Shown piece by piece: positions 908 to 44,693 of a stretch of 64,000 nt of DNA (its first letter is position 1; every line of letters starts with the position of its first letter). Below the pieces are notes generated by a model that ran no database searches, was not told the origin of the DNA, and worked only from the letters and a program-made list of their open reading frames with translations. Location of the stretch: the NCBI GenBank assembly GCA_964535085.1, contig CAZHSE010000001.1:230956-294955 (forward strand). Direction: 5' to 3'. The stretch comes from an uncultured Bacteroides sp. (lineage in GTDB: Bacteria > Bacillota > Clostridia > Oscillospirales > Acutalibacteraceae). The position numbers and the translations under genes were made by a program.

Positions 908-1034
908 ATTATCTGTCAGCTGATTTTTCTATAAAAATAAAGATATTGTGTATTTTTGTCTTGTTTTATATGTGTTTTTGCAAAATCTATTGAAAAAATA
1001 TTTTTGTGTGTTTAGATATAAGTGCACAGAAAAT

Positions 1035-1071
1035 TTTTCACAATTCAGCATTTTTCAGGGATATAGTATGT
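1035..1071 (+). promoter_or_regulatory. Putative ECF-sigma promoter, copy C
   Basis: ttttcacaa-N13-agggatatagtat; 29/37 identical to 43282-43318 (minus) and 27/37 to 44509-44545 (minus). Confidence 0.6.
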
Positions 1072-1085
1072 TGAATGTATTTGAA

Positions 1086-1107
1086 AGAGGTGTTTCCGAT
1101 GTTTTAA
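1086..1107 (+). other. SD + Met-Phe-stop mini-ORF in leader
   Basis: AGAGGTG-tttccg-ATG TTT TAA; near-identical copy at 42742-42721 (minus). Confidence 0.5.
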
Positions 1108-1182
1108 AAGTAAAGATTTATATAAAAGCAAAACAGTATAAGATTATTGATTTCAACATAAATATTAAGGAGAAAAATCATT

Positions 1183-2205
1183 ATGAAACTTATAAATAAT
1201 ATTTTAGCCATTTTAATGGGATTAGCTTTGATTTTATCCAGTGGAACAATTACCGCTTTCGCTAATGAAATTAAAAGTAATGATAACAAAATTCTAATTG
1301 AAAATGGTTTTCCAAGTGAACATATAGATGTTTTATCGACGAATCAAAAACAAGAATTGGTTGATGAATTAAAGAATAATCCCACTAATGTTACTATTAC
1401 AACTTCAATTTTAGAAGTAGATAATTTGGTAGAAGTAGAAAATTTTTTGAAATGTACAGATGAAGAACTTGTTAATATGGGTATGGATTTAGATAGTGTA
1501 ATTGAAACAAGGAAAGAATTAAATGGTCTAAATAAAAAGTCACCTGAACAAATATCAAAAGAAAAAAATGTTAGTTTAGCAGAAGCAACATATTATAAAA
1601 AAGCAATAGAAAAAGGGCTTTCAGGCGAGATAAATCAAACATATAAAGAAACTACAAATCCAGTTACTGCATCTGGTTCAATTTCTTCGTCGAAATTATC
1701 ATATTCTCAAACTGTGACACGCAAGTCTCCAGAGCTTCCAAATTATTCTGTATTTCTTTCATATACTTGGGCTTCACCTTTTACTGTAATTGGATTTAAT
1801 GATGAAATTGTTGTTGCATGGGGAGGCGGACTTAACACAAAAAACGAATCTGGATCATCAAGATATTATAACTGTGGAACAAGCTGGGGCTCATATTATG
1901 AAACTAATGATATGACTAAAAAGTACACCCCAAATGCTGGATTAGAATTTATATTTCCACAATCGGTAACAACACCTCAAACCATATCAAATGGTTCACG
2001 AGCACTTGCAAAAACGGGTGGTGCTAGTTTTATATTGTATCAAACTAAAAAGGAAGGTAAAGAAACTAAGATAATATCACATTATTGTCATCGTGTAATA
2101 AAAGTTGGCACTTCAATTGGAATAAGTACTAGTCCAAGCTTATCAATAAATATCGGAAGTGCTTGGGATAAAACCAACCAAGCTAGTAATAACATAGAAT
2201 ACTAA
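1183..2205 (+). CDS. Secreted hypothetical protein (340 aa)
   Basis: AAGGAG SD; Sec-type signal peptide ending AFA; Ser/Thr/Gly-rich, probably beta-rich C-terminal half; AT-rich. Confidence 0.75.
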   Translation: MKLINNILAILMGLALILSSGTITAFANEIKSNDNKILIENGFPSEHIDVLSTNQKQELVDELKNNPTNVTITTSILEVDNLVEVENFLKCTDEELVNMGMDLDSVIETRKELNGLNKKSPEQISKEKNVSLAEATYYKKAIEKGLSGEINQTYKETTNPVTASGSISSSKLSYSQTVTRKSPELPNYSVFLSYTWASPFTVIGFNDEIVVAWGGGLNTKNESGSSRYYNCGTSWGSYYETNDMTKKYTPNAGLEFIFPQSVTTPQTISNGSRALAKTGGASFILYQTKKEGKETKIISHYCHRVIKVGTSIGISTSPSLSINIGSAWDKTNQASNNIEY

Positions 2206-2237
2206 TGTTTATTATTATATAGTGATATGCATAAAAT

Positions 2238-3296
2238 ATGAAAAAAAAATATTTAGTATTAATTATTTTAATAATTTCTTTATTAGCCCCATCACTTTTT
2301 TTTATAAATAATAAAAATGATAAAGAAAAAGAACTATATCAAGATGATTGGGCAATATATAATTATGGTCAAAAAATTGAAAGCAATAGTGGGAAAGCAG
2401 GTATAGATATAAATATACGACCAATACTCAGTAATATTAGTAGCAAAGATAATGATAATTCTGTTATTGTTGCAGTAGTTGATACAGGTATTGATTTATC
2501 AAATGACATTATTAATCAAAATTTATTTATAAATATTAATGATAAAATTAATAATTGTGATGATGATGAAAATGGATTTATTGATGATTATTATGGTTGG
2601 AATTTTTTTGAAAATAATAACATTATATACGATGATGCAATATATGACTATCATGGAACATATATCGCGGCAACTATATTAAAAATTTCTCCTCATTCAA
2701 GAATTTTACCTGTAAAATTCTTGAATTCTACTTATGGCACAATTGAAGATTCCATTTCTGCAATAAAATACGCTATAGGTAGAGGGGCTAAAGTTGTTAA
2801 TTGCAGTTGGAATTTTAACAATGATAATAAAGAACTGTATGAATTGATTAAATCTCATCCTGAAATACTTTTTATTTGTTCAGCTGGAAATTCAAACATT
2901 GATTTAGACAAAGGTGATCTCTTTCCTTGCAGTTACAATTTAAATAACATAATCACTGTTATGGCTATAGACAGCAAAGGTTTACCATATGATTCAAGCG
3001 GTTATGGTAAAGATAGTGTTGATATTGCAGCACCTGGTGTTAATGTTAAAGTAATTTTACCTGATAACGAAGAAACATTGATAAGTGGTACCTCTGTTGC
3101 AAGTGCATATGTTTCCGGTGTTGCTTCACTCATGCTTTCCGAAAACTCTAATCTAAAGCCTGAAAATATAAAAGAAATTTTAATTAAAAATTCAAATAAA
3201 ATAGCAGGATTGAAAGCAAAGTGCAGATCAGAAGGCATTATTGATGTCAGTGCGAGCTATTTTGCCGCAAAGGAGTATGAGGAGGATAAAAAATGA
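2238..3296 (+). CDS. S8 subtilisin-like serine peptidase, N-terminally anchored or secreted
   Basis: Triad motifs VAVVDTG, YHGTYIA, SGTSVAS; oxyanion SAGN; N-terminal hydrophobic helix. Confidence 0.9.
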   Translation: MKKKYLVLIILIISLLAPSLFFINNKNDKEKELYQDDWAIYNYGQKIESNSGKAGIDINIRPILSNISSKDNDNSVIVAVVDTGIDLSNDIINQNLFININDKINNCDDDENGFIDDYYGWNFFENNNIIYDDAIYDYHGTYIAATILKISPHSRILPVKFLNSTYGTIEDSISAIKYAIGRGAKVVNCSWNFNNDNKELYELIKSHPEILFICSAGNSNIDLDKGDLFPCSYNLNNIITVMAIDSKGLPYDSSGYGKDSVDIAAPGVNVKVILPDNEETLISGTSVASAYVSGVASLMLSENSNLKPENIKEILIKNSNKIAGLKAKCRSEGIIDVSASYFAAKEYEEDKK

Positions 3297-3796
3297 TTAT
3301 AGATATTATACTTATTACATCTTCATTATTATTTTTTGCTGACTTCTTTTTGCTGAATTATCTCTGGTTAAATTTCTGCGATAAACTGTATGATATATTT
3401 TACGTTTTACTGCTTATATTACTTATTCTTACTGCTGTTTTCGGTATTATAAAAATCTTTGTTGTTATGTTTAAATCCAAAAGCAAAATAAGTATAAGAA
3501 TTATTTCGATTGGATTAATAATCGCTTTGTTTGTTGGAGCGGGAACTACGCTGTCTTCAATGACAAAATCAAAATATGTGGGAAGTTTTACGTATATCAG
3601 TGAAAAAGAGACTGATGAAAACGATAATTGTTTTTTAGTGATAATGGATTCGGAGCTGAATAAATATATCAGAGTTAAATGCGATAAAGATACTTATAAT
3701 AAAATTGAAACAGGAGAAAACAATCTTTATACCGTCGAATACAGAATCGGCTGTTTAAACAATGATTACGGAGTTTTGGAAAATATATCAAAATAA
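3293..3796 (+). CDS. Membrane protein (about 3 TM helices plus C-terminal soluble domain)
   Basis: ATGA overlap with peptidase stop; hydrophobic N-terminal half. Confidence 0.7.
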   Translation: MIIDIILITSSLLFFADFFLLNYLWLNFCDKLYDIFYVLLLILLILTAVFGIIKIFVVMFKSKSKISIRIISIGLIIALFVGAGTTLSSMTKSKYVGSFTYISEKETDENDNCFLVIMDSELNKYIRVKCDKDTYNKIETGENNLYTVEYRIGCLNNDYGVLENISK

Positions 3797-38058: not shown

Positions 38059-39018
38059 ATGTTTTCGCCCAGAGAGAGCTTAAGAAAAAGATTAGATGAT
38101 TTAAATGAAAAAATCAGCGACAGTCTTGATTTTGATTTCAGTGCTGTAAGCAGAAATATCAATACTCTTGATGAATTTAACAATGAGATTTATTATAAGT
38201 TTTTAAGCGGAAGAAAGATTTATTTCAGGGGAGAAAGGACGAACAGCCGTTCGAGGCATCTTCTTCCCACAATGCTCAGAAATTCCGATATTCTTTTTTC
38301 AAATAACGACCTGGGAATTGTACACATTGATGCTGAATATATTTTCAGATTCTATTCTTCACTTGGCAGTTTTGTTGATGTGTTTCATAATACAATGGGC
38401 ATGGCTGACAGTGAACATCTTTATGATATCTGCGCTTTTGCGCAGCATTACTGCCATTTTTCGCCGCTTATTGATTTTTCAAAAAGTATATATCCTGCGC
38501 TTTCATTTGCTCTTAAAGACAGAAAAGAATATGACGAAGATATAGTTTTATATGTAGTTGAGCTCAAGGACGATAAGGATTATACTACCGATATAAACGT
38601 CGCTAATAGGTGGCTCAGTGAACTTGACGTTTATGCAAGCTGTTTTGATGAAGAAAATATAAGGACTGCCGTTAGAGAAATGCTCGAAAGCAGAAAAGTA
38701 CCTCAGGGTGATGAATTTAAAATTCACCTTGACCGTATGAGCTCAAGACCTGTTCCTACTGCAAAGCTCATTGATGTTCCGACAAATACACGTATGCGTT
38801 TTCAGCAGGGTGTCTTTCTGATGCTCAATAATTTTCAGCTTTTTAATGTCTCGTATTTTACTAAAAATATCCGTGACCATTTTTATATTACCAAGTATGT
38901 AATCAGCAAGGATATTTGTATCTCACTTCTTGATTTAATTGAGAAAGAAGCCCCGTGGTATTCTTATAAATATTTGACAGACGTTGAATCTGCATTTAAA
39001 ATAGCTATTGAAAGTTAA
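38059..39018 (+). CDS. FRG domain-containing protein
   Basis: YFRGE, AQHY...PLIDFS...ALSFA and RMRFQQGVF motifs. Confidence 0.8.
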   Translation: MFSPRESLRKRLDDLNEKISDSLDFDFSAVSRNINTLDEFNNEIYYKFLSGRKIYFRGERTNSRSRHLLPTMLRNSDILFSNNDLGIVHIDAEYIFRFYSSLGSFVDVFHNTMGMADSEHLYDICAFAQHYCHFSPLIDFSKSIYPALSFALKDRKEYDEDIVLYVVELKDDKDYTTDINVANRWLSELDVYASCFDEENIRTAVREMLESRKVPQGDEFKIHLDRMSSRPVPTAKLIDVPTNTRMRFQQGVFLMLNNFQLFNVSYFTKNIRDHFYITKYVISKDICISLLDLIEKEAPWYSYKYLTDVESAFKIAIES

Positions 39019-39021
39019 TAT

Positions 39022-39064
39022 AAAAAAGGCGTTGATCTTACAGAATAAGACCGATGCCTTTTTT
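39022..39064. terminator. Bidirectional terminator at left edge of cassette 2
   Basis: aaaaaaggcgttgatctta-cagaa-taagaccgatgcctttttt. Confidence 0.7.
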
Positions 39065-39188
39065 CGTTTTAAAATGCTTTTTTATTTAAAGTGTTTTGAT
39101 ATGCTTCATAGTAATTTCTCTTATCTAAAAATAAAGTAAACCTTATAAGGACGAAAACGGCGTTACAAGATATGCTGCTTATTAAACA

Positions 39189-39839
39189 CTATTGCAGATG
39201 ATTTTCTGTTTGTGAGATTATCTTCCCTTCAGAAATTTCAATAATTTCATCGCAGAGTAGAGAAAGATCCTCCTTGTTATGACTGGCGATTATAATAAGA
39301 GTGCCGTTATCTTTTGCATTAAGCAAAAGCTTGTGCACATCGGCAATGGTTTTTTCATCCAATGCATTTGTCGGTTCATCTAAAAGCATAAGCTTCGGAT
39401 TTTCCATTATTGCCTGCGCAATATTCAGCTTTTGTTTCATTCCGAGAGAATATGTTTTTACTTTCTTTTTGTCATTTGGATCAAGCCCGACAGAAATCAA
39501 AGTCTGCTTTATATCAGAGTCGTCTGTTTTTTTATTGATTTTTGCAAGCATTTTTAAATTATCAAAACCGCTGTATTCGGAAAGTAATGTCATATTCTCT
39601 ATTATTATTCCGACGCTTTCCGGAAATTCAATATCTTTTCCGACTGTTTTAGAGTCTATACAAACCTCTCCGTCTGTCGGCAAAATCAAGCCGCATATTG
39701 CTCTGAGAAGCATTGTTTTACCACTGCCGTTTCTTCCGTGAAGACCGTATATTTTCCCACTTTCAAATTCTAAATTTATATTATCAAGTATTCTCTTTTT
39801 TTTGATTTCTTTGCAATATGATTTTACTTCTATTTTCAT
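39189..39839 (-). CDS. ABC transporter ATP-binding protein
   Basis: GRNGSGKT, YSLGMKQK and LLDEPTN motifs. Confidence 0.92.
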   Translation of the reverse strand: MKIEVKSYCKEIKKKRILDNINLEFESGKIYGLHGRNGSGKTMLLRAICGLILPTDGEVCIDSKTVGKDIEFPESVGIIIENMTLLSEYSGFDNLKMLAKINKKTDDSDIKQTLISVGLDPNDKKKVKTYSLGMKQKLNIAQAIMENPKLMLLDEPTNALDEKTIADVHKLLLNAKDNGTLIIIASHNKEDLSLLCDEIIEISEGKIISQTENHLQ

Positions 39840-39842
39840 TTT

Positions 39843-40556
39843 TTACTCCTTTTGTAATATATCTTTTTTATGTATAAATACGAATGATAGAATAATCAGT
39901 ATTATATCTATCAAAAAAATAACAATTAACGGAATAAATATGTTTTTGCTTATTATTTCAGTTCTTGTGAAGCTTAAATAATTAATGAGATTAAATTTCA
40001 AAAAGTACATCATCAATTTTGAATCAGCTGTACCGTCAAGGTATTTTGCATATGCAAAGCTGCCTAGTATATTAAAAACAATATAGGATAAAGAAATTAT
40101 CAGAAAAGCAAAATTTTTTGTTAAATGCAACTCAATATTAAATTGAAACAGCATTAAACAGAATGACACAATAATTCCGTAAAGCAAATATATATATGTT
40201 TTTTTAAAATCAACGCTGCTGTAAAATATAAAATTAAAAAGAGATATAATTGCTGTTTGGACACTGTTGTACAGTATCGTTATTACAGCTGTTTTAATGA
40301 TTTCAATTTTCATTGCAGCACTTCTGGATTTTAAACGGGTTAACCTTACAATATTTTCATTATTATATAGGCAGCCGCTTCGTGCGTTTGTTAACAGTGA
40401 CAGAGTTACAAAGCTGACGGAAGAGAAAATAAGCGAGAGTATTTCAAAATTCATCGGCATACCGTAATATTGCTCGTCTAAACCGCTGTGAGCCTGCATT
40501 ACAGAGCATAAAAAAACAATGAATGCAGCAATAACAGATAATATCTTATTTTTCAT
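39843..40556 (-). CDS. Multi-pass membrane protein (putative ABC permease or immunity subunit)
   Basis: About 6 hydrophobic segments; coupled to neighbours; AT-rich. Confidence 0.7.
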   Translation of the reverse strand: MKNKILSVIAAFIVFLCSVMQAHSGLDEQYYGMPMNFEILSLIFSSVSFVTLSLLTNARSGCLYNNENIVRLTRLKSRSAAMKIEIIKTAVITILYNSVQTAIISLFNFIFYSSVDFKKTYIYLLYGIIVSFCLMLFQFNIELHLTKNFAFLIISLSYIVFNILGSFAYAKYLDGTADSKLMMYFLKFNLINYLSFTRTEIISKNIFIPLIVIFLIDIILIILSFVFIHKKDILQKE

Positions 40557-41262
40557 TTGTAATTATATCCTTTTTAATAAACAGGATTTTGGACAGAGTT
40601 ACTGCTATAAGTATTAGAATAACGCTCATTGCAGAGTTTATCAAATACGTGGGTGCATTGAATGATCCCGAATAGAGCCATTCATCCAAAAACATAGTGT
40701 AAAGCGCAGGTGTGATTCTTATATTCCAGTATTCCATTGCGGAAAGAACAACGAACAGCGCTGTCGAAATAATTATATATGTTTTTTTAAAACTGCAAAT
40801 TATTCCAATCAGCATTGTATATGTTCCTAAAATTAAAAAATACAGGAAAAGTATAAACACATATAACAGGGAAGCGATAAAAAAATTATGTTCTTTCATT
40901 AAACCGAAATCAACAAAAAGCAAAGCTAATATTATATTGCTTCCCCAAAATTCGGCAGCAGTAAGTAATGAATCAAGAGTAATGCCTATTATTCTCCTGT
41001 TAAGATATTTTATTTTTCCAAGCCTTGTGAGCCTATATACATCCATATTACCGAATAAAGAATAATGACCGATGATAAAAAACGCAGTGTATACAATTCC
41101 AATTAAAAGTATTGCGTTATTGAATCCAAAGGATGGTGCCATAATGTCACAAAACAGTTCATTATCATTTATTTTTTCGTTAAAGGAAATGTATTGGCCG
41201 TTAAATATAAACCACATAACAATAAAAAAGGCAGTTCTTGATAAATTATATTTAAATTGCAT
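40546..41262 (-). CDS. Multi-pass membrane protein (putative ABC permease subunit)
   Basis: About 6 hydrophobic segments; overlaps both neighbours. Confidence 0.7.
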   Translation of the reverse strand: MQFKYNLSRTAFFIVMWFIFNGQYISFNEKINDNELFCDIMAPSFGFNNAILLIGIVYTAFFIIGHYSLFGNMDVYRLTRLGKIKYLNRRIIGITLDSLLTAAEFWGSNIILALLFVDFGLMKEHNFFIASLLYVFILFLYFLILGTYTMLIGIICSFKKTYIIISTALFVVLSAMEYWNIRITPALYTMFLDEWLYSGSFNAPTYLINSAMSVILILIAVTLSKILFIKKDIITNEK

Positions 41263-42037
41263 CTTTTTTCCTCACAAATTTTATGTATGCTCCTATGAGG
41301 GCTGCAGACATAACGGCAAAAACCTCTAAAAAAGCGATTGTTCCGTAGAAATAATCGTATTCTGTAAACGGCTGAATAATCATAGAAATGTCATATTTTG
41401 TTGAATATAATGCCATCCATACCGCAAACGTTAAAATGGACGCAATCTTATTATTGTTAAATATAAAACAGACGCTTTGACAAAAAATTCCGCAAACGCC
41501 CGCTAATGCAAGCGCGCCGAAGAAATACATAAAATATGCAATATAAGGGTGATTTATTGAATAAGCCAAAAATGGTCCGCTGACATGCCCTGTGAGATGT
41601 GCTTGCGCAATATATTCTAATCCGCCAAAACCGCTTTTGCCGTGGTTTATAATACAGGATAAAAGGAAATCTCCCATAAGCGGAGCAGCTGTAACAGCAA
41701 TGCTGAAAACAAACGAGCACAAAATTTTTTTGTAAAAATATTTTTTTCTGCTCATTTTTACAAGATAAATGTTCAAAGCTCCCGTCTTTCTTTCTATGAC
41801 ATATTTATCGGCATAAAGCAGTATGAGAAGCAGCGGTAAAAGCCAGAATATCATTACAAACGGAATATATATATCTTTTAAATCTGCCAGCAGTGTTGAC
41901 CCCATTGGGTGAATTGAACTGCTTTTTGACATATTAATGTCAGTAATATTTTTTACGATTACTGCAATCCAAAAATAGAGCATAATAAATACTGATTTTT
42001 TGGATTTGATTAATTTGGTAAATTCCTGATTTATCAT
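41252..42037 (-). CDS. Multi-pass membrane protein (ABC-2-like permease, DUF2705-like)
   Basis: Start at ATG 42037 after GAGGT; D..V.ER..G...IYL...SRKKY..KK pattern typical of these permeases. Confidence 0.7.
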   Translation of the reverse strand: MINQEFTKLIKSKKSVFIMLYFWIAVIVKNITDINMSKSSSIHPMGSTLLADLKDIYIPFVMIFWLLPLLLILLYADKYVIERKTGALNIYLVKMSRKKYFYKKILCSFVFSIAVTAAPLMGDFLLSCIINHGKSGFGGLEYIAQAHLTGHVSGPFLAYSINHPYIAYFMYFFGALALAGVCGIFCQSVCFIFNNNKIASILTFAVWMALYSTKYDISMIIQPFTEYDYFYGTIAFLEVFAVMSAALIGAYIKFVRKKDAI

Positions 42038-42050
42038 ATCGACCTCATAA

Positions 42051-42086
42051 TATCTGTACAGATAATTTGATTTTATCTGTACAGAT
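42051..42086. repeat. Two copies of palindrome atctgtacagat, 23 bp apart
   Basis: 42052-42063 (extends to 14 bp, 42051-42064) and 42075-42086. Confidence 0.85.
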
Positions 42087-42120
42087 TTTTGTTTTAATTT
42101 ATAATGTGATTGGTATCGTA

Positions 42121-42621
42121 TTAATATGACTGAGTTTTCCACTCTCCCTGAATACGATAACTTTTGTCTGTTTTATTATTATTTTTTGCAGCAATCCATA
42201 CATTACCCGGGCTGGCGGATTGATATGCGTCAAAGCTTACCCAGCCGGTTCCCTGTGCAACCGGAAACCTTTGAGATCCCCATGTAGTTTCATCAAGAGC
42301 GAGTGCAAATTTCGCTATTGAACCTTTGCCTTCTTCAGACTCGTTCAAACAAACCCTCCATTGATTTGAAGTATTATCTGTAGAACGTCTTCTTTTACTT
42401 TCATTATTATGTCCGGTAACGCAATTTGCTTTAAGATAAAAGTCAAAACTGTAATTTTGCACTGCTGCAGATGACATAATAGGTATTGTAAGCGAAAACA
42501 TTAAAACAAAAGCAATCAGTAATGTTGTCAGTTTTCTTCTATACATGTTTAAAGATTTATTTTTATTCTTCATAGTTATAATTTGTATGATATAGTAGAT
42601 AACTAAATCATACCCTTTCAT
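42121..42621 (-). CDS. Small secreted protein, DUF2712-like
   Basis: Signal peptide; R.R.T....N.W.V.L..SEEGKG, V.QG, KNNN and Y.I.GEW pattern recalled for DUF2712; exact start uncertain. Confidence 0.65.
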   Translation of the reverse strand: MKGYDLVIYYIIQIITMKNKNKSLNMYRRKLTTLLIAFVLMFSLTIPIMSSAAVQNYSFDFYLKANCVTGHNNESKRRRSTDNTSNQWRVCLNESEEGKGSIAKFALALDETTWGSQRFPVAQGTGWVSFDAYQSASPGNVWIAAKNNNKTDKSYRIQGEWKTQSY

Positions 42622-42652
42622 AATATTTGTGCTTGTTTCACATTATTGCAAA

Positions 42653-42699
42653 AACATATCAAAGAGAAATAAGCGCAACGAATGAAGCTTTGATATGTT
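42653..42699 (-). terminator. Hairpin (12-bp perfect stem, 23-nt loop) in the leader of the DUF2712-like gene
   Basis: aacatatcaaag 42653-64 / ctttgatatgtt 42688-99; short U run on minus strand. Confidence 0.5.
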
Positions 42700-42720
42700 A
42701 ATTATGTTAAAAAGAAAAAA

Positions 42721-42742
42721 TCAAAACACCGGAAACACCTCT
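42721..42742 (-). other. SD + (f)Met-Phe-stop mini-ORF in leader, second copy
   Basis: AGAGGTG-tttccg-GTG TTT TGA. Confidence 0.5.
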
Positions 42743-42848
42743 TATCATAAATTTTAATAAAGCTTTATTAAGAGAAAATATTTTCTCATATTTATAGTGT
42801 CATTTTTTTGAGAAATGTGAATATATTTTTTAAATTAGTTAAAAATTT

Positions 42849-43253
42849 TTAATATTTATAAACAGTTTCTACTTCTGAGCCTGCGGTGAAGGTAACTTTT
42901 AATCTGTAGTTACATAAAATATTGATATTCCGTGACTCTGTCATAGCCAAAAGTGTGTCTGTCTTGCTGTCTGTCCATGTTGCAACAGTTTCATAACCTG
43001 TTGACTTTTCCTTTTGCAGTTCCATTTTTATTTTAAGATTTACAGAACTTTTTGATTGAAGAACAGCTGAACAACTTGCCTTTATTCCTGAAATGTTTAA
43101 ACTTACTGAACAGTTAAGAATATTTACATAACAGGGAACTATTTCATCATCATTTTTAACGTCAGCATTTGAAATTAATGTACTGCTGAAAATCATTAGA
43201 AATGATAAAAGGATGGAACAGATTTGCTTTAATCTTATATTTTTCTTTGTCAT
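42849..43253 (-). CDS. Small secreted protein (134 aa)
   Basis: GAGGAGGTG SD; signal peptide; IVPCY and ELQK....Y..V.TW pattern of proteins that accompany clostridial ECF/anti-sigma pairs. Confidence 0.8.
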   Translation of the reverse strand: MTKKNIRLKQICSILLSFLMIFSSTLISNADVKNDDEIVPCYVNILNCSVSLNISGIKASCSAVLQSKSSVNLKIKMELQKEKSTGYETVATWTDSKTDTLLAMTESRNINILCNYRLKVTFTAGSEVETVYKY

Positions 43254-43281
43254 TGTTACACCTCCTCTCTATTAATCTCTC

Positions 43282-43318
43282 ATATACTTAATCCCTAAAA
43301 ATTGCCGTTTTGTGAAAA
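43282..43318 (-). promoter_or_regulatory. Putative ECF-sigma promoter, copy A
   Basis: ttttcacaaaacggcaatttttagggattaagtatat; 30/37 identical to copy B. Confidence 0.6.
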
Positions 43319-43360
43319 AATTTTTTAAAAATTCAAAAATTTGGATTATTCTACAAATAT

Positions 43361-43993
43361 CTACCCGATATTTTGTGCAATATTAACAAGCTCTTTTTTG
43401 CTGATATTTCCGTTTATTATGAAAGTGTATTCTCCGTTGTTAAATATTACTCCATTAATTTCATTGTCTGAAGTATAATAAACAACATTCATACCATTAA
43501 TTTTTATTTCATTGCTGTTGTATTTTTCACTATCAAAATTTATACTTGTATTTACAATATATTTTTCAACATAAAAATATTTATCGGAATTTCTATAATT
43601 TTGGATATATATGTCATTTGAAGCATATTCTTTAACTTTTTCAAATCCTGTTGGAATATAATTCAACTTCAAAAATTTCACATTTTCAGTATCATCTGTA
43701 TCAACAACACTGTATTCCGAATGATTTGAAAACCTTTCAACAATGAATTTCCTGCTTGAAGGAACTGCAAATGCTGTTATCGTCAGTGAAAGCAGAATTG
43801 CGGCTATCAATATGAATTTAACAGTCTTCTTTGATAGCTTGTGCTCATTTTCCTTTAACTCCTTTTTGAAAATTTCTTCAATTTTTTCAGTATGCTTTTT
43901 ACTGAATTTATGCTTTGGTATTTCAGCGGGAAAGGAGTCAATCCATTTTTCGCAGGAGAGGGCACATGCCTCTTCAAAATTACCCATATTCAA
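43361..43993 (-). CDS. Putative anti-sigma factor, DUF4367-type
   Basis: HKFSKKH..KI N-terminus, single TM, extracellular LNYIP.GF / FDSE / I.GNISK.EL..IA; overlaps the sigma stop. Confidence 0.8.
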   Translation of the reverse strand: MNMGNFEEACALSCEKWIDSFPAEIPKHKFSKKHTEKIEEIFKKELKENEHKLSKKTVKFILIAAILLSLTITAFAVPSSRKFIVERFSNHSEYSVVDTDDTENVKFLKLNYIPTGFEKVKEYASNDIYIQNYRNSDKYFYVEKYIVNTSINFDSEKYNSNEIKINGMNVVYYTSDNEINGVIFNNGEYTFIINGNISKKELVNIAQNIG

Positions 43994-44508
43994 TTACCTT
44001 CTTCAAAATATTTTTTCATCTTTTCTTTGGCTAACTGTATTTTCTTGCGAACATAGGAATCTTTAATTTTGTATATTTCCGCTATTTCTCTGCTCTTATA
44101 TCCGTAAATATATTTGAGGTATAAAAAAACTTTGCTTTTCTCATCTAATACTTCATCAAAAGCAGATAATAATTCCACTTTTTCAAAATTTTCAAAATAC
44201 TCTAAATCATTATCATCTTCAAACATAACTGTGCTTATTTTCAAAGATTCATTATACATATCAACAGCAAATCCCGTAACAATAGTTGATAAGAATGATT
44301 TTGTATCTTTTGAATCGATATAACTGATTTGATTAAAATGCTTTGCAATGTAAAGAAAAGTCTCCTGTACACATTCCTCCGCATCATCTGTATTATTTGT
44401 CTTATTAAGAGCTATCCAGTATAACAAATCTTTATAAGTATCGTATAGCTCAATGAATCTGTCTTTTTCCGTCTGGGAGTCAAGCAGATTAAAAAAAAGT
44501 CCTGTCAT
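43990..44508 (-). CDS. ECF RNA polymerase sigma factor
   Basis: Region 2 DAEECVQETFL; region 4 YGYKSREIAEI; 172 aa. Confidence 0.9.
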   Translation of the reverse strand: MTGLFFNLLDSQTEKDRFIELYDTYKDLLYWIALNKTNNTDDAEECVQETFLYIAKHFNQISYIDSKDTKSFLSTIVTGFAVDMYNESLKISTVMFEDDNDLEYFENFEKVELLSAFDEVLDEKSKVFLYLKYIYGYKSREIAEIYKIKDSYVRKKIQLAKEKMKKYFEEGN

Positions 44509-44545
44509 ATATACTATATCCCTAAAAATTTTGTTTTTTTGAAAA
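44509..44545 (-). promoter_or_regulatory. Putative ECF-sigma promoter, copy B (autoregulatory, abuts the start codon)
   Basis: ttttcaaaaaaacaaaatttttagggatatagtatat immediately before ATG 44508. Confidence 0.6.
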
Positions 44546-44657
44546 CATCTTTATGAGAAATTTTAGAACATAAAAAATAAATTTTGTCAAGACGTTTTGC
44601 AAAAACGCACAAAATAATGACAAAAAAACAATACTTACTGTTTTTTTTACGCATAAG

Positions 44658-44693
44658 CAAAAATGAGGCAGGATAATCCCTACCTCATTTTTG
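44658..44693 (-). terminator. Terminator after copZ
   Basis: caaaaatgaggcagg-ataatc-cctacctcatttttg; related to the 581/880 hairpin. Confidence 0.75.

Follow-up and report, generated by a model that had tools for sequence, protein, structure and literature searches.

The cargo and its predicted control: a two-module locus

Eight co-oriented minus-strand genes span positions 39189-44508 of the window, the 64,000-nucleotide stretch of a gut Clostridia genome that was analysed here, and they raise the question of whether such a block constitutes a single system and what it might do for its host. An earlier note on this DNA had placed the genes, in the order sigma, anti-sigma, two small secreted proteins, three membrane proteins and an ATPase, in an AT-rich block bounded by two terminators. 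All eight ORFs were confirmed in that order, and the features of the block are as follows.

44658-44693, minus strand: intrinsic terminator that closes the upstream copA-copZ operon and forms the left block boundary
44510-44546, minus strand: predicted sigma-type (ECF-like) promoter of sigma, GTTTTCAAAAAA-N11-AGGGATATAGTATA, PWM score 25.6
43990-44508, minus strand: ECF-type sigma-70 family factor, 172 aa (Sigma70_r2, TIGR02937)
43361-43993, minus strand: single-pass anti-sigma, 210 aa (DUF4367, 57.6 bits, Pfam)
43283-43319, minus strand: second predicted sigma-type promoter copy, TTTTTCACAAAA-N11-AGGGATTAAGTATA, PWM score 35.9, top site in the genome
42849-43253, minus strand: p134, secreted 134-aa protein of an unnamed family (signal peptide and Ig-like beta-sandwich)
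42719-42806, minus strand: junction element between p134 and cargo, with the same ~75 nt in other loci
42121-42573, minus strand: secreted DUF2712 protein, 150 aa from the ATG at 42573 (DUF2712, 44.2 bits, Pfam)
42052-42086, no strand assigned: 12-bp palindrome ATCTGTACAGAT present twice, 23 bp apart, in the gap that separates DUF2712 from membrane protein 1
41252-42037, minus strand: membrane protein 1, 261 aa from the ATG at 42037 (GAGG before it)
40546-41262, minus strand: membrane protein 2, 238 aa, WxPxxD-like (NF035952, WxPxxD_TM, 53.9 bits, below the 70-bit cut-off)
39843-40556, minus strand: membrane protein 3, 237 aa, DUF2705-like (PF10920, 19 bits, below the 22.4-bit cut-off)
39189-39839, minus strand: 216-aa ABC ATPase of ABC-2 / type V exporter type (ABC_tran, 111 bits)
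39022-39064, bidirectional: terminator common to the block and the convergent FRG gene, right block boundary

An acquired island

The block (39065-44657, ~5.6 kb) has a G+C content of 30.4%, as against 37-38% in its flanks. Both bounding hairpins fold well: that of copA-copZ (-22.8 kcal/mol, z -5.8) is followed by UUUUU, and the bidirectional one (-17 kcal/mol, z -4.2) has U runs on both sides. In the congeners G349 and G448, copA-copZ is directly convergent on the FRG homologue, without the eight genes. These empty sites imply that the whole block is present or absent as one and, together with its low G+C, they identify it as an acquired, horizontally exchanged island, a composite of two modules. 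In a further genome, G442, the copZ/FRG site is occupied by a different insert. The gene order of the block is found again in G011/L049, L061 and L067, and this recurrence, with the empty sites, shows that the arrangement is not mere chance. The block is self-contained, as the earlier note had proposed, but it is not the single indivisible eight-gene system that was envisaged; instead, it joins a generic switch to one of many alternative cargoes.

The sigma/anti-sigma/p134 trio

The sigma factor matches Sigma70_r2 (37.2 bits, Pfam) and TIGR02937 (58.9 bits against a cut-off of 42.9, NCBIfam), with Sigma70_r4_2 slightly under its cut-off at 24.8 bits, and its stop overlaps the anti-sigma start by 4 nt (TTGA). 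The anti-sigma possesses a short cytoplasmic N-terminus, a single transmembrane segment at 60-78 (hydropathy) and an extracytoplasmic DUF4367 (LolA-like) domain at 109-209. The topology suggested earlier thus holds, as does the secretion of both small proteins, each of which has an N-terminal signal-like segment by hydropathy, and the Pfam guesses of DUF4367, DUF2712 and DUF2705 proved right when the scan was run, albeit with DUF2705 below threshold.

The trio, in the order ECF sigma, DUF4367 anti-sigma and p134, occurs in 38% of the genus's species and is recognisable in 35 related loci. What lies 3' of p134 differs from locus to locus: an RHS/YD giant protein in 15, VanZ proteins in eight, ABC cassettes in five, and in others an Amidase_6 protein or a subtilase or trypsin-like protease. 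The trio is a widespread, undescribed and generic envelope-signalling switch to which various cargoes are attached.

A promoter motif with the consensus TCACAAAA-N11-AGGGATwwAGTrTA is found before sigma and again before p134, and its spacing of 16 nt from TCAC to GGGAT fits ECF promoter geometry. In related loci, the motif TTTrTCACAAAA-N11-AGGGATwwAGTrTA has 32 distinct sites, nearly all directly 5' of sigma or p134, as against only two on the opposite strand in 712 kb. A PWM scan of the 2.03-Mb genome returned only three sites above background (35.9, 28.4 and 25.6), with the next best at 17.2. The promoters of p134 and sigma have an identical 22-mer in common, and motif variants are likewise common to both promoters within one locus. 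The p134-side copy, which lies 29 nt upstream of the ATG at 43253 with a GGAGG ribosome-binding site in between, is kept 5' of p134 homologues in related loci; among 32 loci, 10 rank their own p134 promoter first and 13 place it within the top three. A single nucleotide separates the sigma-side copy from the sigma ATG, which predicts a transcript with little or no leader; in at least 13 related loci, the same motif is located 7-10 nt 5' of the sigma ATG. The promoters are in silico predictions, as are leaderless initiation and read-through.

The remaining site above background lies elsewhere in the window, before a second AT-rich cassette.

1034-1070, plus strand: third predicted sigma-type promoter copy, PWM score 28.4, ~110 nt before the cassette
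1183-3796, plus strand: 340-aa secreted protein, S8 subtilase and 167-aa three-TM protein, 28.9% GC

Upstream of this promoter, ~110 nt resemble the region upstream of sigma by alignment. The subtilase is well supported (Peptidase_S8, 123.8 bits), and homologues of the cassette's genes are found directly 3' of p134 in L014, L021 and L023. Judging from sequence, the cassette is a probable remote member of the regulon, by way of the third promoter copy.

p134 and the anti-sigma ectodomain

The p134 family is large (920 clusters at 50% identity), yet none of its 351 close homologues has a Pfam match or a name, and a Pfam scan of 28 members gave no matches. Nonetheless, p134 is the best-conserved trio member in 29 of the 35 loci and is linked to the sigma/anti-sigma pair in nearly all of 54 related loci. 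Its AF2 model (pLDDT 86.6) has CsgH/CsgC and GH2 Ig domains as top Foldseek matches (TM 0.43-0.56), while that of the DUF2712 protein (pLDDT 81.9) is an eight-strand jelly-roll with matches to PirA, YPM and Ena2A (TM 0.4-0.5). As modelled, both folds are generic (TM 0.4-0.55) and yield no functional assignment.

A further clue comes from divergence. Distances among p134 proteins follow those of the anti-sigma ectodomain (partial Mantel r 0.56 given sigma, p 2e-4), compared with r 0.19 for the anti-sigma cytoplasmic N-terminus and 0.79 for the positive control of sigma versus that N-terminus. This tracking hints that p134 and the ectodomain are extracellular partners, although common extracellular rate shifts, instead of binding, could give the same mirror-tree signal. 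The earlier note had assigned a secreted protein either to the anti-sigma or to the ABC proteins, and each assignment finds its protein: p134 goes with the sigma/anti-sigma pair, by linkage, its own promoter copy and ectodomain co-divergence, and DUF2712 goes with the three membrane proteins and ATPase, a five-gene set kept with or without sigma.

The DUF2712-ABC cassette and its junction

DUF2712, the three membrane proteins and the ATPase occur together at every locus seen. The DUF2712 ORF is open to 42621, and 42573 was picked as the likely start by homologue alignment; similarly, the ORF of membrane protein 1 covers 41252-42142, with a likely start at 42037. Each permease has 5-6 hydrophobic segments by hydropathy. 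Membrane protein 1 has no family match in Pfam or NCBIfam, and its homologues come after DUF2712 in L006, L007, L008 and L061; membrane protein 2 overlaps its neighbours by 11 nt; and positional counterparts of membrane protein 3 in L067 and L070 carry DUF2705. In the ATPase, Walker A, signature, Walker B and H-loop are all intact, and among PDB chains it comes nearest to ABCA nucleotide-binding domains, PmtC and NosF. The palindrome pair is unique in the genome and, as RNA, would form a 14-bp hairpin (-18.1 kcal/mol, z -7.7) with no U tract after it.

Four lineages (the window, G011, L061 and L067) have a cassette of this kind 3' of sigma and a DUF4367 anti-sigma, with p134 identity to the window copy falling as low as 36%, and G024, L069 and L070 have one without any sigma. 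In G011/L049, tight gaps of 16-31 nt separate p134, a 196-aa gene, DUF2712 and the permeases, and a sigma-type promoter precedes p134.

The junction element in the window consists of a short hairpin, the palindrome TTAATAAAGCTTTATTAA, TATGAT and then AGAGGTGTTTCCGGTG TTT TGA, an ending that reads as a ribosome-binding site plus a two-codon mini-ORF. Folding gave no significant RNA structure, and a promoter scan picked out TTAATA-16-TATGAT. The ~75-nt element is also present 3' of p134 in L016, L017 and L018, and it heads an amidase cassette on contig C5 of the same genome, a cassette that has no sigma promoter. The element may act as a leader, or else as a sigma-A-like promoter that carries operators; its resemblance to an independent sigma-A-type promoter means that the ABC cassette may have separate regulation.

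Proposed function and alternatives

We consider it fairly likely that the block is a two-module island, in which the ECF/anti-sigma/p134 switch is coupled to a yybNMLKJ-type cargo with an inducible role in competition or defence; the block is probably a device of this sort. By analogy with established ECF systems, sigma would be kept at the membrane by the anti-sigma in the resting state, until it is freed by a cue from the envelope or a competitor that acts on the DUF4367 ectodomain; p134 most likely binds this ectodomain or modulates it. Freed sigma would then transcribe its own gene from the promoter abutting the ATG, p134 and whatever is downstream from the second copy and, in the present genome, the subtilase cassette from the third. 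The second module would provide a secreted DUF2712 effector or accessory paired with a dedicated exporter or self-protection pump and, if so read, would belong to a repertoire for cell-surface competition and defence that the cell can induce.

A possible, if doubtful, alternative is that DUF2712 is a Sec-secreted proteinaceous antimicrobial and that the three membrane proteins and ATPase are its own self-immunity pump, much like LanFEG of lantibiotics or the lactococcin 972 ABC system. The best NCBIfam match of the ATPase is indeed the LanF-like, lantibiotic-protection TIGR03740 (3.5e-50), with the Lcn972-type TIGR03608 at 1e-34, but its 170.8 bits are far under the equivalog cut-off of 309.75, and neither LanE/LanG nor ABC-2 permease families were matched in Pfam or NCBIfam. 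Rapid divergence of DUF2712 and the permeases (25-33% identity within the genus), unlike the ATPase and p134, is consistent with such a role, as are the patchy distribution (4 of 25 genomes of the genus), the toxins among sister cargoes (RHS proteins, amidases) and, in B. subtilis, co-repression of the yybN operon by Rok with the sdp, sbo-alb, sunA and yydH operons (PMC2978689). However, DUF2712 is a jelly-roll without a Lactococcin_972 domain, and no killing activity was found reported in the literature for any DUF2712 protein. The strong hairpin 3' of the structural gene could favour an excess of DUF2712 mRNA, but it is absent in G011, where the DUF2712-permease gap is 16 nt. The bacteriocin/immunity resemblance drawn earlier is thus an analogy, with DUF2712 unlike lactococcin 972 and the ATPase well under both the LanF and Lcn972 equivalog cut-offs.

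It is rather unlikely that the ABC-2 transporter clears an exogenous envelope-active compound, such as an antimicrobial peptide or a competitor's toxin, with DUF2712 as an extracellular capture accessory akin to a LanI-/LanH-type helper and the ECF switch sensing damage. Resistance transporters are common targets of ECF sigma induction, VanZ-family proteins are among the other cargoes behind the same switch, and the ATPase is of the LanF, PmtC or ABCA kind. In layout, the nearest system is sigY-yxlCDEFG of B. subtilis, whose YxlFG is a type V ABC (PMC4105308, PMC11466899). Nevertheless, many sister cargoes are offensive (RHS, amidase), no substrate clue emerged, and DUF2712 has a type-I signal peptide without lipobox or anchor, so that it would be released and not surface-held.

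Improbable, too, is the idea that trio and cassette are functionally unrelated neighbours with separate promoters at a common integration hot spot. The presence of the junction's sigma-A-like promoter far from any sigma promoter, the sigma-less cassettes, the different insert in G442, and the presence in G015 of a p134 homologue and a DUF2712 cassette on separate contigs all lean this way. Against it, the pairing recurs in the four diverged lineages, the G011 genes form one tight operon behind a sigma-type promoter, no terminator was found between p134 and DUF2712 in the window (z -0.8), and the whole block is gained or lost as one. Finally, it is highly improbable that DUF2712 is a surface or fibre subunit like the Ena endospore-appendage proteins, exported or assembled via the ABC complex: there are Foldseek matches to Ena1/Ena2A fibres (7a02, 9i0y; TM 0.39-0.49), and spoIIGA and sigE, which adjoin one cargo cassette in the genome, suggest that the organism may form spores, but PirA, YPM, nucleoplasmin and viral capsids score equally well, marking a generic jelly-roll, no N-terminal connector with paired cysteines is conserved across the family, and export by a Sec-type signal peptide requires no ABC exporter.

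Comparison with known systems

In the favoured two-module reading, the cargo is of the yybNMLKJ type, in which a type-V ABC ATPase and three mutually dissimilar membrane proteins accompany the secreted DUF2712 jelly-roll, and among the control genomes only B. subtilis matches both DUF2712 and DUF2705. The earlier remark that no part has a citable function still stands, and no toxin, immunity or substrate evidence for the yybN type was found in the literature for any organism; what the earlier note missed is the known B. subtilis counterpart, the yybN operon. There, YybJ2KL has been predicted to form a type V exporter, with no function assigned (PMC11466899), and the operon, AT-rich and bound by Rok, is a horizontally acquired island that appears in one list with those same sdp, sbo-alb, sunA and yydH operons (PMC2978689).

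Gene Content and Boundaries of the Block

The minus strand does carry all eight ORFs of the block that had been claimed from the sequence (39189-44508), in the order sigma factor, single-TM anti-sigma, p134 (a secreted protein of 134 aa), DUF2712 protein, three membrane proteins (permeases) and ABC ATPase, and Pfam/NCBIfam scans bore out the family guesses made for them (Sigma70, DUF4367, DUF2712 and DUF2705, the last below threshold). By hydropathy, each permease has 5-6 hydrophobic segments, and both small proteins, p134 and the DUF2712 protein, have signal-like N-termini. The two terminators proposed as boundaries fold far better than shuffled sequence, and the AT-richness of the block is evident from its 30.4% GC against 37-38% in the flanks.

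The block is flanked by copA/copZ on one side and by an FRG/oxidoreductase pair on the other. The gene for the FRG-domain protein (38059-39018, plus strand; 56 bits) converges on that of the ATPase, lies outside the block and is kept in relatives without it, and copA is conserved across the genus. In two relatives, G349 and G448, copA-copZ directly meets the convergent FRG homologue, with gaps of ~55 and ~10 nt, and the flanking genes further out are syntenic; in a third, a CNNM/CorC transporter gene occupies the copZ/FRG junction (locus L073, G442:C20, 2613-3944). Since the site is empty in two genomes and holds another insert in the third, the 5.6-kb block was either inserted here or cleanly lost from the other genomes, the site being a variable one, and the CNNM/CorC-type gene marks it as a recurrent insertion point. 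The earlier note's idea of a self-contained unit thus holds in that the whole block is gained or lost together, while its parts form two modules rather than one. Similarly, its overall interpretation survives in that the sensor and the pump each appear to have a secreted protein of their own, but not as a single eight-gene system. The best reading is that the block would act as an inducible extracytoplasmic switch (sigma factor, anti-sigma and p134, hereafter the trio) coupled to a yybN-type secreted-protein/ABC cassette, and that this switch would belong to a family of switches driving varied antagonism or defence cargo, the cargo being the genes that follow p134.

The Sigma Factor, the Anti-Sigma and p134

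The sigma factor (172 aa) has the size and make-up of an ECF (group 4) protein, with sigma-2 and sigma-4 domains only and a length of about 170-200 aa: Sigma70_r2 scored 37.2 bits (cut-off 24), Sigma70_r4_2 a marginal 24.8 bits (cut-off 25.7) and the sigma70-ECF model TIGR02937 58.9 bits (cut-off 42.9). No equivalog-level NCBIfam match to a named ECF group was found, and the SigY model NF007216 reached 33.9 bits against a cut-off of 194. The predicted anti-sigma (210 aa; DUF4367, 57.6 bits) has one TM segment at 60-78, its gene overlaps the sigma stop by 4 nt, and the pairing is kept in 35 loci. In the literature searched, DUF4367 is mentioned only with GerS/SsdC, LolA-like, protein-binding regulators of an amidase that are unrelated to sigma factors. 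Profile searches of the PDB by sequence with the anti-sigma, DUF2712 protein and p134 returned no matches.

The gene for p134 comes directly after the sigma and anti-sigma genes. Its family consists of standalone secreted proteins of ~135 aa that share the aligned core MELQKEKSxGY..V.TW...YRLK.T..AG; the 351 close homologues all lack a Pfam domain or name, none of 28 family members matched Pfam, and a profile search extended the family to 920 clusters at 50% identity. What emerges is a large unnamed family, of ~900 such clusters, that constitutes a fixed third partner of DUF4367 anti-sigmas. An AF2 model (pLDDT 86.6) shows a signal helix followed by an Ig-like sandwich, which finds only generic matches in the PDB (CsgH/CsgC, GH2 Ig domains and Ipi; TM 0.43-0.56). 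The 173-aa third gene of locus L067 was considered as a distant p134, and hhalign detected no relationship.

In 29 of the 35 loci, p134 is the best-conserved gene of the trio. When distance matrices were compared across 32 trios, the positive control, sigma versus the cytoplasmic N-terminus of the anti-sigma, gave a partial r of 0.79; p134 versus the anti-sigma ectodomain gave 0.56 when conditioned on sigma and 0.57 when conditioned on the N-terminus (p 2e-4 in each case), and p134 versus the N-terminus 0.19. These sequence comparisons are suggestive, rather than conclusive, of p134 working with the DUF4367 ectodomain. Tentatively, and with some doubt, the trio could be viewed as an undescribed three-component ECF family of gut Oscillospirales, in which p134 would be the extracellular partner (a co-sensor or feedback ligand) of a LolA-like ectodomain, and in which the output promoter would drive interchangeable cassettes for antagonism or defence, namely RHS toxins, amidases, VanZ, subtilases and yybN-type ABC systems, with a conserved junction element as the point of exchange.

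A Promoter Motif Shared by Sigma and p134

Three predicted sites of the sigma-type promoter occur in the window:

44510-44546: site before the sigma gene
43283-43319: site before the p134 gene
1034-1070: third near-copy, before a subtilase cassette (1183-3796)

The first two regions have an exact 22-mer in common. A position weight matrix scan of the 2.03-Mb assembly found only these three sites above background, with scores of 35.9 for p134, 28.4 for the 1183 cassette and 25.6 for sigma, the next best being 17.2; the DUF2712/C5 promoter (C5 being a contig of the source genome) was also considered as a diverged sigma-type promoter and scored below background. Across species, the consensus TTTrTCACAAAA-N11-AGGGATwwAGTrTA fits 32 distinct sites; nearly all of these stand immediately ahead of a sigma or p134 gene, and only 2 sites were found on the opposite strand in 712 kb. 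The distance from TCAC to GGGAT, 16 nt, fits ECF promoter geometry. Moreover, clades in which the motif has drifted (L032, L039, L050, L055 and L058) carry the same variant at both promoters of a locus, as would be expected if each locus's sigma read its own sites; a locus's sigma promoter has its best match in the p134 promoter of the same locus in 10/32 loci, and has it among the top three in 13/32. Judged from sequence, a conserved, co-varying motif with ECF-like spacing before both genes would be compatible with autoregulation by the sigma factor.

In at least 13 loci, the sigma-side motif ends 7-10 nt from the ATG, so the predicted transcript would be leaderless or nearly so. Conceivably, AGGGA might double as a ribosome-binding site when transcription starts from a conserved upstream TTGACA box. 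Two loci (L022 and L052) belong to the same MAG, and one genome (G476) has three copies, the trios differing in promoter variant and cargo. Genomes with several trios point to switches that run in parallel, each insulated from the rest. From a practical standpoint, the motif permits regulon prediction straight from metagenomes.

Exchangeable Cargo Downstream of the Trio

Genomic contexts were drawn from p134 neighbourhoods, including 54 tabulated loci, in which the trio is a conserved unit and the genes after p134 change. The cargo includes giant RHS/YD proteins in 15 loci (RHS_repeat, DUF6531 and Amidase_6 C-termini), VanZ proteins in 8, ABC cassettes in 5 and, as a further type, a trypsin-like protease. 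Homologues of the window's subtilase cassette are found behind trios in L014, L021 and L023. The p134 family is present in 38/101 species of the genus, some with two or three copies, and in only 14/401 genomes sampled across the order. Taken together, these contexts suggest how abundant uncultured gut Clostridia might turn on contact-independent weapons and defences through one reusable sensor, with RHS toxins, amidases, VanZ proteins and ABC pumps as outputs.

Two cassettes of the source genome lie apart from a trio. Contig C5 (11464-13310; L001 3464-5310) encodes what resembles a toxin/immunity pair, namely a secreted Amidase_6 protein of 398 aa and a small membrane-anchored protein of 163 aa, with spoIIGA-like and sigE-like genes directly downstream. 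In L013 and L020, homologues of the pair are found within or next to trios. The second is the subtilase cassette, where ~110 nt upstream of the genes (940-1110, plus strand) resemble the entire sigma upstream region, covering a GTTTTTGCAAAA-N4-TTGAmA box as well as the ECF-type promoter. In the position that the sigma ATG would occupy, its leader reads AGAGGTGTTTCCG ATG TTT TAA, which forms a mini-ORF of two codons. From its sequence, the 1183-3796 cassette looks like relocated cargo that kept the switch's promoter.

A parallel cargo layout of small secreted protein, membrane proteins and ABC ATPase occurs in L017 (9562-13084), L016 and L031. In L016/L031, the products are of 136 aa, 643/662 aa, 285 aa (the ATPase) and 215/224 aa; the L017 ATPase is 46% identical to that of the window, and a Pfam search matched none of these cargo proteins. 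These cargoes may represent additional variants on the yybN-type theme.

Is the Cargo under Sigma Control?

Three observations count for sigma control of the cargo: the interval between p134 and the DUF2712 gene contains no terminator; in the relative G011, p134 and the genes after it, up to and including the permeases, lie behind a sigma-type promoter with tight gaps of 16-31 nt; and a DUF2712 cassette preceded by sigma and anti-sigma genes recurs in four lineages. Counted against it is the following feature:

42719-42806: junction element between p134 and the cargo, ~75 nt conserved

The element is composed of a short hairpin whose stem sequence differs by species, a palindrome TTAATAAAGCTTTATTAA, TATGAT, and AGAGGTGTTTCCGrTG, which opens a tiny ORF. 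It also follows p134 in L016, L017 and L018, and its 3' AGAGGTGTTTCCGATG core follows p134 in L011, L022 and L030 as well. The C5 amidase cassette is headed by the same element with no sigma promoter there, and its 3' part is present in the leader of the 1183 cassette. The element may act as a promoter of sigma-A type with operators, as a leader, or as a site that anchors recombination when cassettes are exchanged. RNAalifold detected no covariation in it, and neither the DUF2712 leader (z -0.96) nor the p134-DUF2712 spacer folds better than shuffles. A riboswitch or other known RNA in the intergenic regions was also considered, and Rfam returned one sub-threshold match only, inside a coding region.

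Within the cassette, a very stable hairpin at 42052-42086 was rejected as an intrinsic terminator, having no U tract and not being kept in G011. The palindrome ATCTGTACAGAT occurs in it twice, in exact copies 23 bp apart centre to centre, and nowhere else in the genome; the G011 homologue lacks it. This twin palindrome could be an operator for a dimeric regulator, no gene for which is encoded nearby, or an mRNA-stabilising hairpin.

The DUF2712/ABC Cassette

The DUF2712 protein (PF10916, 44.2 bits against a cut-off of 22) carries a signal peptide and is encoded by the first gene of the cassette. Alignment with homologues places its likely start at 42573. The ORF is open for 16 more codons upstream (42574-42621), neither candidate start has a clear Shine-Dalgarno sequence, and the closest homologue, P0121, is called at 166 aa, leaving the start codon uncertain. 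The model (pLDDT 81.9) is an eight-strand jelly-roll with best matches to PirA, YPM, Ena fibres, nucleoplasmin and capsids (TM 0.4-0.5). Permease 1 likely starts at 42037, with a GAGG site upstream. The last permease matches DUF2705 (PF10920) at 19 bits, below 22.4, the middle one WxPxxD_TM (NF035952) at 53.9 bits, below 70, and the first no family in Pfam or NCBIfam; positional homologues in L067 and L070 carry DUF2705. The three were also considered as paralogues, and no pairwise similarity was detected. The ATPase, the last gene, has intact motifs (ABC_tran, 111 bits) and is closest to LanF-like, PmtC and ABCA domains (type V/ABC-2; PmtC and ABCA are the nearest PDB chains), while falling below every equivalog cut-off.

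In every locus compared, genes for three membrane proteins and an ATPase come after the DUF2712 gene. Sigma and a DUF4367 anti-sigma stand ahead of it only in some lineages (the window, G011/L049, L061 and L067), whereas G024, L069 and L070 have no such pair in front of it.

Comparison with Known Systems

The closest counterpart of the cassette is yybN-yybM-yybL-yybK-yybJ of Bacillus subtilis, where a secreted DUF2712 protein likewise comes first, followed by three membrane proteins of DUF2705/WxPxxD type and a short ABC-2 ATPase; the block matches the N-M-L-K-J order taken from the literature (PMC2978689, PMC11466899), and B. subtilis alone among the control genomes matches both DUF2712 and DUF2705. 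The yybN-M-L-K(-J) operon is AT-rich, Rok-bound and horizontally acquired, and is listed with antimicrobial operons (PMC2978689), while YybJ2KL is predicted to form a type V exporter, with no function assigned (PMC11466899). The block too is an AT-rich, horizontally acquired island. On the other hand, the B. subtilis operon is reported to be Rok-silenced, with no ECF pair mentioned for yybN in the literature found; identity between the two is too low for word-based searches, and the permease family matches are sub-threshold. With the block, the orphan yybN-type cassette of B. subtilis (DUF2712, DUF2705) gains a testable regulatory context.

A second parallel is sigY-yxlCDEFG (ECF31) of B. subtilis, an autoregulated ECF operon with its own anti-sigma, in which the small YxlD at +2 is needed for regulation and YxlFG is a type V ABC system (PMC4105308; bioRxiv 10.1101/2019.12.11.873521; PMC11466899). 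The block shares the ECF operon with anti-sigma, the extra +2 protein and the type V ABC, and YxlD provides a precedent for a required "+2" protein. It differs in having a DUF4367-type anti-sigma, a secreted Ig-like +2 protein rather than a small membrane protein, three heterologous permeases and a DUF2712 protein.

Sec-dependent RHS/WapA toxin loci of Gram-positive bacteria resemble the relatives' loci, where the switch lies directly upstream of RHS/YD proteins with variable C-termini (e.g., Amidase_6) and small downstream genes, the cargo being exchanged at the conserved junction; the window itself has no RHS gene, and ECF sigma control of RHS toxins was not found in the literature searched.

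For the resemblance to bacteriocin/immunity modules drawn in the earlier note, the LanFEG and lactococcin 972 types were rejected: LanFEG(+LanI/LanH) and lactococcin 972 operons also place a small exported protein or peptide beside an ABC-2 ATPase with separate membrane subunits, and the block's ATPase has its best subfamily match in LanF-like proteins, but there are no lanthipeptide genes near the block, equivalog cut-offs are missed (TIGR03740, 170.8 bits against 309.75; TIGR03608 for lactococcin 972-type ABC immunity, 119.8 against 254.85), no MutE/MutG (LanE/LanG families) or ABC-2 membrane matches were found, and the Lcn972 domain and fold are absent, with no Lactococcin_972 Pfam match and no Lcn972 chain in the top 50 PDB matches of the jelly-roll model.

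Finally, the trio invites comparison with RpoE-RseA-RseB of Escherichia coli, where a sigma factor, a single-pass anti-sigma and a secreted third protein form one autoregulated operon. RseB binds the external domain of RseA and tunes RseA proteolysis, and a LolA-like fold takes part. The two systems have no homology, and the likeness is one of analogy only: the LolA-like fold is on the secreted partner in E. coli and on the anti-sigma (DUF4367) here, p134 has its own promoter, and the host here is Gram-positive. A trio with a secreted partner, its own promoter and modular cargo is not described in the literature searched. If p134 and the ectodomain really are partners, the trio would follow RseA/RseB logic in a Gram-positive setting, each fold sitting on the opposite partner.
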